A stretch of 64,000 nucleotides of DNA from a virus. The DNA lies in the IMG/VR virus record IMGVR_UViG_3300042301_003932, one strand, 5' to 3'. Below the pieces are notes generated by a model. It saw only the letters and a list, made by a program, of their open reading frames with translations, ran no database searches and was not told the origin of the DNA. The position numbers and the translations under genes were made by a program. Below are positions 3,204-10,463 of the stretch, piece by piece (the first letter of the stretch is position 1; each line of letters starts with the position of its first letter).

Positions 3204-3216
3204 CTTTTTTGTTTTG

Positions 3217-3288
3217 TGATTCCGCCTGGATTCGAACCAGGAATAGAAGATTAGAAATCTACTGTGATATCCCTTTCACCACGGAACC
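3217..3288 (-). tRNA. tRNA-Arg (anticodon UCU), CCA not encoded
   Basis: GGTTCCG/CGGAATC acceptor stem, anticodon loop TTTCTAA, T arm CCTGG-TTCGAAT-CCAGG. Confidence 0.92.
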
Positions 3289-5618: not shown

Positions 5619-6002
5619 TTAAACAATTTCTTTGTAAGTTATTTTTTTAACAACTAAATCATCTCTATGTAGATCAAAACCAAAATATTTAAATTCGTGT
5701 TCTAATATTCTTGTAATTTTACGTCTGTAATATCCATTACATCTTACTTTGTATTTTTCACAATATCTGTTTGAGTATACCCAACATCCGACCATTTTCA
5801 TATCTACCACTACGTCAACTTCAAATATAAAACTTCCATTCCATACCTTTTTATACTTTCTTACGTTAACCATTTTTAAAACCGCGTCTGTTAATTCCTC
5901 ATAACCAGAATCAGCCATTGGTTTCATATCAAAACATGTGTCTTTAAAAATTGTTTTGATTGCTTTTATTTGTGTGTCTTTAATTGCCCTACCATCTTTC
6001 AT
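5619..6002 (-). CDS. Hypothetical protein, paralog of 6030..6440
   Basis: Shares IKAxK, (V/I)RKYK, (F/Y)EVDVxVDM, YSNxYC, RCNGY, KYF motifs with neighbour. Confidence 0.8.
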   Translation of the reverse strand: MKDGRAIKDTQIKAIKTIFKDTCFDMKPMADSGYEELTDAVLKMVNVRKYKKVWNGSFIFEVDVVVDMKMVGCWVYSNRYCEKYKVRCNGYYRRKITRILEHEFKYFGFDLHRDDLVVKKITYKEIV

Positions 6003-6029: not shown

Positions 6030-6440
6030 TTATGAAAAACTTTTGTACTCAATTTTTGAAATATTCACATCGTCACGACCATCTATTGAAAAATATTTCA
6101 ATTCTTGTAACACCGTACCTAAGATACCATTTCTGAAATATCCGTTACATCTTCTTGAATGTCTTGTACAATAATCATTACTATAATAGTAACTACTATT
6201 TCTCATGTCTACAATAACATCAACTTCGTATACATATTGTTCTTGGTTGTCAGTCCAAGCGGTTCTTCTGTGTTTATATTTTCTAATGGATTTAATTTTA
6301 ACCACCGCACCTTTTAAGTCGTCGTCAAAATAGTAACCCTCATTTTTATAAAATTTAATTTCAGTATCTTTAGTTAATTTTTTAACTGCCTTAATATGAT
6401 TGTCCAAGATGTGTTTTCCGGTTTTATATTTGTTTTCCAT
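6030..6440 (-). CDS. Hypothetical protein, paralog of 5619..6002 (start revised to MENKY)
   Basis: Same motifs; identical 17-bp promoter/start context CATGACACAAAGATAGT. Confidence 0.8.
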   Translation of the reverse strand: MENKYKTGKHILDNHIKAVKKLTKDTEIKFYKNEGYYFDDDLKGAVVKIKSIRKYKHRRTAWTDNQEQYVYEVDVIVDMRNSSYYYSNDYCTRHSRRCNGYFRNGILGTVLQELKYFSIDGRDDVNISKIEYKSFS

Positions 6441-6472
6441 GACACAAAGATAGTAAAAAAAATTAAATGCAC

Positions 6473-6504
6473 AAAAAAATGGATACAAATTTTATTGCAT
6501 CCAT
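6473..6504 (-). terminator. Probable terminator of the large ncRNA
   Basis: Minus ATGGATGCAA...TTGTATCCAT followed by T-run. Confidence 0.55.
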
Positions 6505-6540
6505 CAATTTTTTTTTACCAGTAATCATGTTTTAAAAAAA

Positions 6541-7358
6541 AGGTTGAGATTACACCTGTTATTGAGAACCTTTAGAGTCATTATTTATTCTACTCTTATC
6601 CACTTCCTTTTGAGAAGTATTCCTCAGTGACGATTATTTAGGTGAATCACTCCTTGAGGTTTGAATTACTCTCATCTTACTTGACTCTTTCCGAGGATGC
6701 CTCCCCAGTTCGTCCTTGCGGGACTAAAGGTTTTTCGGATAATTACACTCAGACTTGGGATCCTTGTGTGCAATGAACGGCTCATTACTATGTAGTCACC
6801 TTTCATCCAAACCTGACAGACACTTTTCCTTTTTGTAGTTAATAATTTAGTTTTATTACTTTCCATAAAGTGTTTGTGTTGTGGATTGTCAAAGTAGTGG
6901 TCTGCCAACCGAGCCAACCCATCTTTTGGACGAATCGATACTCAACTACTCTGTGAAATGTCCCCATTTCCATACATCAAGATTACTTCAAAACAATTCC
7001 TTTGGTAAGGAATCATTAGGGTTGGTAACAGCACCACCTGTACACGAACATACCTTTCGGTTTTAAGTACCCTATCATAATGGAACTCGCAATAATAAAA
7101 TTGGATAATCTTATTTTTTGCATAATTCCTACGGGTTATTCCTCTTGGTGTTCCCACCTCAAACTGACAACCCACATTGCCAGTTCGTCGAACCACTTTC
7201 CCTACAGCGTTGCCCTCGGTACTAAAGGTTAAACGGTATCCCGCTTGTGTACTCGACCTCGACAAGTCCGAAGACTCACCAAGACGCAAACCCATTACAC
7301 GTTAGGTTCACTTTATCCCACTTTCGTGGTTTATTTTAATGGACCATACACGGCCCAA
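6541..7358 (-). ncRNA. Large structured ncRNA, GOLLD-like (~820 nt)
   Basis: GC-enriched island with no credible ORF; tetraloop hairpins CCAC-GAAA-GTGG, AGTC-TTCG-GACT, ACC-GAAA-GGT, GAAATG-GGGA-CATTTC and AACTGGCAA/TTGTCAGTT helix; 3' end ...GTGGATAAGAGTAGAATAAATAATGACTCTAAAGG...AGGTGTAATCTCAACCT resembles GOLLD as I recall it; size and phage/tRNA context fit. Confidence 0.75.
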
Positions 7359-7442
7359 TGACTTAATTTAGTTTCACACTTAAAGAAAGGGAGGTGTTAA
7401 TTCGCTTTTTATAATTGTGACGACAATTTCAGTCGGTTTTAG

Positions 7443-7456
7443 TTTTTCAAAGAACG
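7443..7456 (-). promoter_or_regulatory. boxA-like antitermination element in the ncRNA leader
   Basis: Minus CGTTCTTTGAAAAA resembles rrn boxA; lies between promoter and RNA. Confidence 0.45.
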
Positions 7457-7510
7457 TTTTTTAGACTTGACAACGAGTATCTTTCATCTCCTTTAGTTTC
7501 AAATCTTTTA

Positions 7511-7518
7511 CAAAGTTA
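7511..7518 (-). promoter_or_regulatory. Bacteroidota-type -7 promoter (TAACTTTG) for the ncRNA
   Basis: Matches TAnnTTTG; TTGTC about 20 nt upstream. Confidence 0.6.
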
Positions 7519-7549
7519 AGTCTTTTTTTTCAATTAGACAAGTACTTTG

Positions 7550-7690
7550 TTAATTTTTTTCTACGTACACCTTGTCAGTTCCGTATTTTTTAGCCATGAT
7601 ATCAGCAAACTGATAATTAGGTGTATATACTTTCTGACCTTCGTTATTGATGTAGGCGTAAATTTCATTTACAACTTGATCTTCACTCAT
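7550..7690 (-). CDS. Small hypothetical protein (46 aa, MSEDQVVNEIYAYINNEGQKVYTPNYQFADIMAKKYGTDKVYVEKN)
   Basis: Manually translated; TAGATTTG promoter motif upstream (~7740-7747). Confidence 0.65.
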   Translation of the reverse strand: MSEDQVVNEIYAYINNEGQKVYTPNYQFADIMAKKYGTDKVYVEKN

Positions 7691-7838
7691 GTCTTAACAT
7701 TATTTCAATTTATTATTAGGACGTTTCCTAATTGTTTTACAAATCTAAAACATTTATTCTAAACTGTCAATTGTTTTTTTAAAAAATAATGAATTTTGTC
7801 AGAGGTATTTTATAAATATATAAATATGTTACAAAAAA

Positions 7839-9578
7839 CTAGTAATTTGATAAATTTTTTAATAATTCTATTCCAAGAGTTTTGTGTTTTCCTTGAAGTG
7901 GGATTTCAAAAACGTTATTACCTGGAAAATTATACGATTTTTCTGGTAACATTAGTTTAGTATGTCCCGTATCATCAATACCTAATAATGGGTATGGTAC
8001 GTTTTTCATAGTTATAGAATTACTTTCAATCATTGTACATTTTTCAGGGTGATCCCATTGTCCTCTATTATCAACAACACAATCTAATTTTTCCATTATA
8101 TAATCCCATTCACTCTCAGATAAAGTTTTACTACCTTTTATATGGTTTTTTAAAAGTGATTCAACACCTTTTTTATTACTTTCTTTAGATTCTTTTAGAT
8201 TAGTTGGTGATCCTATTTTTTTATTTAATATATCAACAAATGTTTTTTGAATGTCCTTTAATAGATCAACATATTTTCTATCACCTTCTTGTTTTTTACC
8301 ACTATATAAAAAATTAATACCTGATATATTTGTAATACATTTATGTCCTCCTGAATTAGCCCTTATAACATCTAACCCATTAACCGAAACTTTATCTAAT
8401 AACATTCTTTGTTTTTCACTTAAACTTCTATATAGTCTAGATGATATATTAGATAAAATATCTCTTAAACTACCATAATCGCCTTGTATTTTAAATGAAG
8501 GTGAATTTCCATATATTGCCATCATATCTTTAAATGTAAACCCAACAGATCCATATTCCGTTCCCATTTCAGATAATCTTTTTAGGGTACCAAATGTTAT
8601 TTTTTGTGAAGTTAATTCGCCCTTAAAAACATCTAAAACCTCATCTTTTATCTCACCTAAATCAACACCTTTTAAAGCTCTTTCTTTTTTATATGGGTTG
8701 CAAGAGGATTGAACCAACCCTTTAGGCCAAGCCATTACAATAAAATCAGCATCAGGATTATTTCTAAATGGTGTATACCTATCATAAGATCCCGACTTTA
8801 CCATTGATCCTCCTCCGTATTGAACAATCACATTACCTTGTACATCAATATTTTTATAATTTTTCATTTTAGAAACGTAGTCTTCTTGATTTTTTACTAA
8901 ATCATCTATATTCGCATAACCTTTTTCTTTTATAATCTTTTTAATCAAATTTAATATACTCAAAAGTGATGGTTTTGCTTCTAAAACAAGTTGCTCTAAA
9001 AATTTTGGTTTGTTTTTAAATGCTAATAGTAGTTTGTTTGTTACAAGCCCCATTAACATTTTATTTCTTTTCAATGATTCATTTTTATCATATTTGAAAA
9101 GATAATTCATTACCATTTCTGGCGTTATGTCATTTACTGCAAAATTTGCAGAATCAACTGTTGATATTAGGTGTATGTCTTCTGATGTAAATATTTCTTT
9201 TGGTGATATACTTTGTGAAATTGTTTCAACGTTTGATCTTGATGCTTTGAAGTTTGTTGCGGTGTCCTTTTCTACTCCCGCTTGACTGTCGTGATGGTCT
9301 GTATGAATAACAAACATTGGTTTCCCGTGTGCAAAATCAACTAATACTGGCATAACTTCACCACTACCTTCAGGTTTTTTTATTCCAAATTCTTTATCTC
9401 CGTATTGAATAATTTCAGCATCAACAACATTAATACCGTTTTGTTCAAGGTAGTTTTTCATTGCAATTGCCGTAGTAACTCCGTCTAAATCTTGGTGAAA
9501 GTATATTTTAGCTTTCTTGTATCTTTTTGCCAGTAAATTAATATCTCTAATTCCTGATTCTTTGATTAGTCTTTTCAT
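7839..9578 (-). CDS. DHH-family phosphoesterase with extra C-terminal domain
   Basis: HQDLDG, VDFAH, TDHH and SGGH motifs; C-terminal GQWDHP...ITMKNVPYPLLG domain. Confidence 0.8.
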   Translation of the reverse strand: MKRLIKESGIRDINLLAKRYKKAKIYFHQDLDGVTTAIAMKNYLEQNGINVVDAEIIQYGDKEFGIKKPEGSGEVMPVLVDFAHGKPMFVIHTDHHDSQAGVEKDTATNFKASRSNVETISQSISPKEIFTSEDIHLISTVDSANFAVNDITPEMVMNYLFKYDKNESLKRNKMLMGLVTNKLLLAFKNKPKFLEQLVLEAKPSLLSILNLIKKIIKEKGYANIDDLVKNQEDYVSKMKNYKNIDVQGNVIVQYGGGSMVKSGSYDRYTPFRNNPDADFIVMAWPKGLVQSSCNPYKKERALKGVDLGEIKDEVLDVFKGELTSQKITFGTLKRLSEMGTEYGSVGFTFKDMMAIYGNSPSFKIQGDYGSLRDILSNISSRLYRSLSEKQRMLLDKVSVNGLDVIRANSGGHKCITNISGINFLYSGKKQEGDRKYVDLLKDIQKTFVDILNKKIGSPTNLKESKESNKKGVESLLKNHIKGSKTLSESEWDYIMEKLDCVVDNRGQWDHPEKCTMIESNSITMKNVPYPLLGIDDTGHTKLMLPEKSYNFPGNNVFEIPLQGKHKTLGIELLKNLSNY

Positions 9579-9614: not shown

Positions 9615-10463
9615 TTACTGTTGGTCTTCTTTTATCTCTTCTAACTTTTGGAAGTATTCTACTCTCGTTTTTGCAATTTCAGTATAGTTTGGTGATAATT
9701 CTATTCCTAACCACCTTCGTCCGAGAACTTCAGCAGCAACTAAACTAGTACCACTACCGGTGAAAGGGTCTAATACAATGTCATTTTTATAGGACAATAT
9801 TTTAATAGCTTTAGTTGGTATGTCCATTGAAAAGGTTGCCTTGGTCAAAGACTTTGTATCTGCAAAATATTTCCATTGGGCAAATACTAGATCCATAAAC
9901 TCTTTTTTATCTTGTTCCTCATAGACCACTTTCTTTTTTATGGTTCCGTCTTCCTGTTCAATTTCAGTTGGTGTCCCCTTCCATTGTGGCTCCCCTTTAA
10001 CCTTTTTAATATGAAATTTTTTGTATGCAAGTATTACACACTCCTTTGGGTTATAGATATATGGTGATGATGGTGACATCCAAGAACCCCATGCAGTTGT
10101 TTTAAGTCTATGTGGGGCATCTTCTTCTAAATCAACTAAACCAAAAAATCCGTAACCAATTTCTTTCATCAACTGATACATCTCAGAAACAAATAAAATT
10201 CTCCCACCCTTTTTTTGTCTGTTAACTTCGTATGGTATATTTAATGCAATACGACCATCATCTTTTAATACTCTATAAGCCTCTGTAAGCCAGTTTCTAG
10301 CAAAAACAAGATAATCCTCAAACTCAACATCATCTTCATGTACGTCATACGCAATACCTACACCATAGGGTGGTGAGGTCACAATTAGGTCAATACAACC
10401 TTCAGGTAATGTTTTCATGACCTCAACGCAGTCACCATTTATAATCTTGTTTGTCTCTATCAT
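9615..10463 (-). CDS. DNA methyltransferase, N4-C/N6-A beta class
   Basis: TSPPY catalytic motif N-terminal, DPFTGSGT SAM-binding motif C-terminal. Confidence 0.92.
   Translation of the reverse strand: MIETNKIINGDCVEVMKTLPEGCIDLIVTSPPYGVGIAYDVHEDDVEFEDYLVFARNWLTEAYRVLKDDGRIALNIPYEVNRQKKGGRILFVSEMYQLMKEIGYGFFGLVDLEEDAPHRLKTTAWGSWMSPSSPYIYNPKECVILAYKKFHIKKVKGEPQWKGTPTEIEQEDGTIKKKVVYEEQDKKEFMDLVFAQWKYFADTKSLTKATFSMDIPTKAIKILSYKNDIVLDPFTGSGTSLVAAEVLGRRWLGIELSPNYTEIAKTRVEYFQKLEEIKEDQQ

Follow-up and report, generated by a model that had tools for sequence, protein, structure and literature searches.

The window, by which we mean the whole stretch of 64,000 nucleotides that was analysed, belongs to a 112,067-bp linear virus contig of IMG/VR that CheckV rates as 37% complete, and nearly all of its genes lie on the minus strand. 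Among these protein genes is a GC-rich RNA gene that we assign to the GOLLD family, with a leader and a predicted promoter ahead of it and a predicted terminator behind it, all on the same strand. Directly upstream of the promoter is a 46-aa ORF (7550..7690, minus strand), a neighbour that lies outside the RNA, and beyond it come a 579-aa protein (7839-9578, minus strand) and a DNA methyltransferase (9615-10463). The 579-aa protein has a weak, sub-threshold match to DHH (RecJ/nanoRNase-like; E 8e-4, 20.1 bits vs a cutoff of 28.1), and PHROGs/Pfam searches on the neighbours yielded no family beyond this weak match and the methyltransferase. The protein recurs in at least 117 IMG/VR stretches (56–99% identity among the best 80 listed), and the only GenBank phages that carry it are two uncultured ones of 634–642 kb. 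Downstream, a tRNA-Arg(TCT) gene called by both ARAGORN and Rfam (3216..3288, minus strand) lies 3.25 kb beyond the GOLLD.

GOLLD has been a family in Rfam since 2009, and its model (RF02032) spans the conserved 3′ half of GOLLD only. The model matches the window at 6541-6953 on the minus strand with 315.7 bits (E 1.5e-89), about twice the gathering score of 150, and the alignment runs through the full model, positions 1–416 of 416. At the gathering threshold the whole-window Rfam scan returned two matches, one tRNA and this GOLLD, with no match to ROOL in the window. The Rfam search around the locus that the earlier note had proposed, run permissively over 6300-7700, gave GOLLD alone at E ≤ 1, with no hit to ROOL, introns, RNase P or tmRNA. 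The sequence outside the model was compared with env-38, a GOLLD whose structure has been solved, using, from its 5′ domain, fragments of 116 and 120 nt (i.e., the first ∼236 nt of env-38) taken from Supplementary Table 4 of PMC12286853. One fragment aligns to 7355..7237 with 83% identity (score 74 vs 30.5±4.0 for shuffles) and the second to 7225..7120 with 76% identity (score 57 vs 32±4.1); both are collinear with the window, both score above all 200 shuffles, and together they place nucleotides ∼3–230 of env-38 on 7355..7120.

The 3′ end of the Rfam match, at 6541, and the beginning of the env-38 homology, at 7355-7357, delimit a core of 817 nt (7357..6541, minus strand), so that the span of 6541-7358 originally proposed for the RNA turned out to be essentially exact. 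The core divides into a 5′ domain (6954..7357, minus strand), defined by the env-38 homology, and a 3′ domain (6541..6953, minus strand), defined by the full-model match to RF02032. Within the latter, an AU-rich internal linker (6817..6889, minus strand) corresponds to the unpaired model positions ∼62–136; conservation among relatives dips to 0.53–0.58 there, and ARAGORN found no tRNA inside it. Because a full-length Rfam match to the 3′ domain is accompanied by a 5′ domain homologous to that of env-38, we consider this a full GOLLD of env-38 type, and the locus is almost certainly a two-domain GOLLD gene in a large uncultured phage. The other option raised in the earlier note, a new large RNA class, or else another known one (ROOL, group I/II intron, RNase P or tmRNA) that is merely GOLLD-like, draws on size and phage setting and nothing more, and its probability is negligible with GOLLD the sole Rfam family at E ≤ 1 in 6300-7700, the model covered entirely, and the stretch outside the model related by homology to the env-38 5′ domain.

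Relatives were collected from IMG/VR by searches with a 17-base motif of the 3′ domain and with the neighbouring 579-aa protein, which yielded 198 loci. When the window's 1,061-nt promoter-to-terminator stretch was used as an nhmmer query against 199 loci (these 198 and its own), 158 matched and 126 of the matches covered the core from close to the 5′ end through to the 3′ end; there are ∼100 distinct GOLLD relatives in IMG/VR phage contigs. An alignment of the 74 sequences below 97% identity, which are 66–100% identical to the window, was folded with RNAalifold, and the consensus recovers the Rfam 3′ structure together with an elaborate 5′ domain. Standard pairs occupy 96.1% of paired cells, as compared to 84.8% in shuffled alignments and ∼40% with the partners slid, a percentage that is inflated by the derivation of the structure from the same alignment, the counts of double changes being the stronger evidence. 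Both sides are altered in 146 of 238 pairs, and none of 500 shuffles reaches the observed values. In helix 30, the long-range helix annotated as a pseudoknot in Rfam, all nine pairs have double changes; the 3′-domain helices 27–43 are 91–100% paired, and helices 5–26 of the 5′ domain covary as well. Compensating base changes across ∼74 distinct relatives preserve the fold of both domains, the kind of covariation that the earlier note had proposed to seek in homologs.

Among GenBank phages, blastn found only short 3′-domain matches, in LR745206 and in Acinetobacter phages. One of the latter, phage Bestia, a cultured phage of Acinetobacter baumannii, carries an unannotated GOLLD (MW316733.1 26116-26903, L216; 221.8 bits with Rfam) that fills a 788-nt gap between tRNA-Asn and tRNA-Asp in a tRNA array. 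In four related GenBank phage records, blastn gave this match at the equivalent position. Ten matches of bacterial contigs to the 17-base GOLLD pattern were also obtained, none of which is a GOLLD by nhmmer or Rfam; since all ten are chance matches, the species-representative genomes gave no sign of the lineage as a prophage.

The description of the region as a GC-enriched, non-coding island with GNRA/UUCG-capped hairpins was borne out. The GC content is 0.39–0.47 over 6600-7400 vs 0.25–0.30 in the flanks, and the core has a minimum free energy of −233.1 kcal/mol vs −202.7±7.8 for shuffles (z = −3.9; 0 of 20 shuffles equally stable). Hairpins with a UUCG cap in GAGUCUUCGGACUU, GAAA caps in CCACGAAAGUGG and ACCGAAAGGU, and a GCAA cap in CCCGCAAGG can be read directly from the minus strand. 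The RNA strand (minus) also contains two internal ORFs, one of 117 aa (7295..6942) and one of 81 aa (6917..6672), in which the earlier note had thought a conserved coding signal might be looked for. Each is intact in 3 of the 74 non-redundant relatives, the near-identical ones; the remaining relatives show 1–14 in-frame stops and lost start codons, and frame-shifting length changes affect the two ORFs in 29 and 40 of the 74, respectively. Because the ORFs are intact in just these three relatives, we conclude that the stretch is non-coding. That the island encodes one or both small proteins has in its favor the presence of both ORFs in the window, and there is next to no chance of it when stops, frameshifts and start loss break them everywhere else and substitutions track base-pairing, not codons.

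The −33/−7 promoter consensus of Bacteroidota derives from promoters of Bacteroides and Flavobacterium. Upstream of the core, a predicted promoter (7511..7541, minus strand) consists of TTG at 7541..7539, a 20-nt spacer, and TAACTTTG at 7518..7511, the very place at which a promoter motif had been noted (7511-7518). TTG-N20-TAACTTTG fits the Bacteroidota −33/−7 type, from which we infer a promoter, and the same letters can also be read as TTGTCT-N17-TAACTT. The block cTTGaca-N17-TAACTTTGTAAAAC is invariant or nearly so in the 74 relatives and is the best-conserved element outside the RNA: alignment columns T10, T11, T38 and T39 do not vary, and G12, T33, A34, T37, G40 and T41 are conserved at ≥90%. 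With a strict regular expression, TTG-N17-22-TAnnTTTG, the block was recovered ahead of the core in 57 of 74 relatives, where 86–197 nt (median 127) separate the −7 box from the core. The promoter 8-mer is not enriched window-wide (127 found vs 119 expected), and its significance comes from its near-invariance in relatives rather than from its frequency. TAnnTTTG does, within 60 nt upstream, precede 10 of 61 genes vs 3.7±1.9 at random positions.

Two further features of this block were observed among relatives. Short inverted repeats in the spacer (7519-7541; GTC...GAC, GACA...TGTC, GGAA...TTC) covary, and they might constitute a putative regulator binding site. Some relatives (L157, L073, L089, L072 and L060; alignment columns 1–100) have a second, upstream copy of the promoter block with a long GAUUUGAAAC...GGUGAUGAAAGAUACUC hairpin and an A-run; this second block looks like a tiny separate unit, which in the window would be fused to the GOLLD leader.

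At the other end, a terminator scan predicts an intrinsic terminator (6470..6505, minus strand) made up of an 11-bp stem (6505..6478) followed by TTTTTGT, in agreement with the terminator first placed at 6473-6504. A run of eight U residues (6540..6533) also follows directly after the last GOLLD hairpin. The relatives' consensus keeps both T-runs and an ATGGAT...ATCCAT-type hairpin, and by a crude test 34 of 74 relatives have a hairpin and T-run downstream.

GOLLD would thus be transcribed alone from a host-type (Bacteroidota −33/−7) promoter at 7541..7511, yielding a primary transcript of ∼1.03 kb that would start at ∼7504 with a leader of ∼148 nt and end either at the U-run (6540..6533) or at the terminator (6505..6470). 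Because of the leader and the downstream terminator, the predicted transcript is longer than the 817-nt core. The stand-alone transcription unit of ∼820 nt envisaged in the earlier note is plausible as to its independence, with a conserved promoter and a predicted terminator, but not as to its extent, since the unit exceeds that span by the ∼148-nt leader. We regard it as distinctly improbable that GOLLD is read through from the upstream 579-aa/46-aa ORFs or cut from a longer precursor, in which case the TTG...TAACTTTG block would be a protein-binding or processing site and not a promoter. Such an arrangement would accord with the neighbouring genes all being on the GOLLD strand, with the absence of terminator predictions between the block and the 46-aa ORF, with the covarying repeats of the spacer (GTC/GAC, GACA/TGTC), and with the GOLLDs of LR745206 and Bestia, which follow tRNAs and have no promoter of their own. 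However, the block matches the Bacteroidota −33/−7 promoter in both sequence and spacing while being the best-conserved non-RNA element, and the same box precedes genes of the window more often than random positions (10 of 61 vs 3.7±1.9). Stand-alone transcription, which we prefer, would then be a trait of this lineage and not of the family, because GOLLD lacks its own promoter in LR745206 and Bestia.

The leader (7358..7505, minus strand) runs for ∼148 nt from the predicted start (∼7504) to the core, and it is the only part of the GOLLD here that is absent from published and solved GOLLD. Its length varies among relatives, conservation falls and indels appear between promoter and core, and when folded alone it does no better than shuffles (z = −0.3). 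Three features stand out in it, namely a small 5′ hairpin that covaries and has an expanded form in the window, the motif GUUCUUUGA (7447..7455, minus strand), and a helix enclosing a variable insert. Columns G96–T102 of the motif are invariant in the alignment, and GUUCUUUGA is found in 84 of 86 distinct upstream regions, 60–120 nt before the core and with a small covarying hairpin ahead of it. In LR745206, a 634-kb uncultured phage, it occurs after a tRNA and without a promoter (L217 1717-1727), and for this reason we assign it to the RNA and not to the promoter; the GOLLD of Acinetobacter phage Bestia does not have it. RNAalifold pairs GUUCUUUGA with a near-invariant UCAAGGA of the 3′ domain (6657..6651), a pairing in which the alignment has one-sided changes only, zero compensating double changes, and an uncompensated G-to-A variant. 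Bestia, without GUUCUUUGA, has UCUAAGA where the window has UCAAGGA. GUUCUUUGA (7455..7447) might dock on UCAAGGA (6657..6651), or it might mark a processing site.

The surroundings of the gene are partly shared among relatives. Of 103 distinct loci found by RNA motif alone, 53 have, by tblastn, the 46-aa ORF ahead of GOLLD and on its strand; the 579-aa protein is likewise upstream in 43, and the DNA methyltransferase in 41. This arrangement is, in our view, lineage synteny, and we take it as no sign of a functional partnership between GOLLD and the 579-aa and 46-aa genes. The closest relatives have tRNA-Arg(TCT) 1.6–4.6 kb downstream of the matched stretch. A same-strand tRNA lies within 5 kb in 42 of 98 distinct relatives and within 500 nt in 15, and in more distant relatives a tRNA-Met abuts GOLLD, either 0–17 nt downstream or ∼145 nt upstream.

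Cryo-EM of the env-38 GOLLD has revealed a protein-free, 14-mer cage of D7 symmetry and ∼38 nm, in which each half-cage is capped by 5′ domains, the rings are built from 3′ domains, and the AU-rich linker, which is disordered, occupies the interior (Kretsch et al. 2025, PMC12286853). The window RNA resembles env-38 in its two-domain layout and its length (817 nt here vs 833 nt), in a 5′ domain that is 76–83% identical over the ∼230 nt compared, in a 3′ domain that fits RF02032, and in its internal AU-rich linker and nearby tRNA genes. The two differ in setting, as env-38, from a marine metagenome, lies downstream of tRNA-Met, whereas here the nearest tRNA is the Arg(TCT) gene 3.25 kb downstream; the tRNA-Met adjacency seen in more distant relatives echoes the env-38 site. 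They also differ in that the window gene has its own conserved predicted promoter and ∼148-nt leader, whereas the solved env-38 construct has no leader. From the homology to env-38, we infer that fourteen window RNAs would build a closed, protein-free D7 cage ∼38 nm across, whose caps would consist of 5′ domains and whose rings of 3′ domains, the AU-rich linker (6889..6817) pointing inward. With low confidence, we suggest that such a cage may act on the translation machinery during infection, by retaining or sequestering cargo such as tRNAs or parts of ribosomes, a guess prompted by the family-wide link to tRNA genes and by a ribosome pull-down that is cited in PMC12286853.

GOLLDs are also found in tRNA arrays, as in Bestia and, according to Morgado et al. 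2020 as cited in PMC12286853, in Mycobacterium. These share with the window gene the Rfam family, a phage or prophage setting and the tRNA link; however, they sit so tightly between tRNA genes that neither a promoter nor a leader would fit, whereas the window gene stands among protein genes, and the Bestia GOLLD lacks the GUUCUUUGA that the window has. ROOL is a further RNA of phages and prophages found near tRNAs and forms an RNA-only octameric cage (PMC12286853). It is like the window RNA, for which a cage is predicted too, in being a large, ornate phage RNA near tRNAs, but is unrelated to it in sequence and fold.

One part of the leader bears a likeness to ribosomal RNA. The 3′ tail of 16S rRNA is the anti-Shine-Dalgarno region, which in Bacteroidota ribosomes is covered by bS21. 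In the leader's variable insert, the 15-mer AACACCUCCCUUUCU (7384..7398, minus strand) resembles the Bacteroidota 16S rRNA 3′ tail AACACCUCCUUUCU with one extra C, a likeness that was spotted by eye and post hoc and is to be taken as a curiosity. The sequence is specific to the window's subclade: the exact 15-mer is found in 32 of 209 loci examined, and a sister phage subclade has AACCCCCUUUUCUUU in place of AACACCUCCCUUUCU. On the bacterial side, a 16S tail of ...GGCUGGAACACCUCCUUUCU was read in one genome of Chryseobacterium's phylum (L214), of 151 genomes sampled from this phylum, 15 contain the 14-mer of the tail, frequently more than once each, and a different sampled genome carries AAUACCUCCUUUU in place of the 16S-tail sequence. 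Any function for the look-alike is speculative. We consider it very unlikely that the leader is a working part of GOLLD, overlooked with the leader-less constructs in print, whose 16S-tail loop would, in phages with bS21-encoding relatives, tie the cage to the capture of ribosomal or anti-Shine-Dalgarno-binding factors; if true, this would be the first testable handle on GOLLD function.

Because CheckV rates the 112-kb record as 37% complete, the genome should be roughly 300 kb, and GOLLD-bearing relatives of 76–100% completeness measure 229–304 kb; this phage is likely of jumbo size (>200 kb). In four of five GOLLD-bearing relatives of 229–304 kb, bS21 scores above the Pfam cut-off. GOLLD and bS21 occur together in the near-complete relatives L211, L212 and L213 (the records of L073, L163 and L014). 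Freshwater phages encoding bS21 have been described with genomes of 293–331 kb and 31–34% GC and were assigned to Bacteroidetes by one CRISPR spacer and gene taxonomy (Chen et al. 2022, PMC9723584); that paper makes no mention of GOLLD. In the window, a Shine-Dalgarno core lies upstream of 2 of 61 genes vs 6.4±2.3 at random positions. An A/T-rich, TATTTAT-like motif that is not a Shine-Dalgarno sequence stands before many genes (e.g., 9578, 13511, 18723, 27872, 38796 and 57025). Several TAnnTTTG boxes end just 5 nt before the ATG at 6002, 6440, 19609, 30416 and 34831, a spacing that suggests leaderless or near-leaderless mRNAs.

By analogy with the bS21 phages, the host is probably a member of Bacteroidota, the −33/−7 promoters and the lack of Shine-Dalgarno use being suggestive of this phylum and not exclusive to it. 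The Bacteroidota jumbo phage of the earlier note is therefore supported indirectly, by the absence of Shine-Dalgarno use, the promoter type, and the 229–304-kb relatives that encode bS21. A host outside Bacteroidota is unlikely, though of the alternatives weighed here it fares best. An Rfam model search found no GOLLD in 151 sampled genomes of Chryseobacterium's phylum, TAnnTTTG is not enriched window-wide, and the 112-kb record, itself 37% complete, has neither a bS21 gene (PF01165) nor a T9SS sorting domain (TIGR04183), all of which would fit a host from elsewhere. Against this stand the Shine-Dalgarno cores, fewer (2 of 61 genes) than the 6.4 seen at random positions, the −33/−7 type of the GOLLD promoter, and the presence of bS21 in four of five relatives, matching the 293–331-kb Bacteroidetes-assigned phages of PMC9723584; the restriction of the 579-aa protein, among GenBank phages, to the two uncultured ones of 634–642 kb likewise counts against another host.

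The GOLLD instance itself is already known in kind, an ordinary member of a catalogued family with a structure solved in 2025, and what goes slightly beyond print is confined to the conserved promoter and leader and to the host clue. It belongs to a very large, lake-type GOLLD clade (>100 distinct loci) in phages of ∼300 kb, several of which encode bS21. Promoters of Bacteroidota type and the lack of Shine-Dalgarno use hint at the host group behind GOLLDs that had lacked a host assignment. The genes of this clade bring with them their own predicted promoter and a conserved leader that structural work has omitted, and if the leader is functional, it would offer a handle on the function of the cage.
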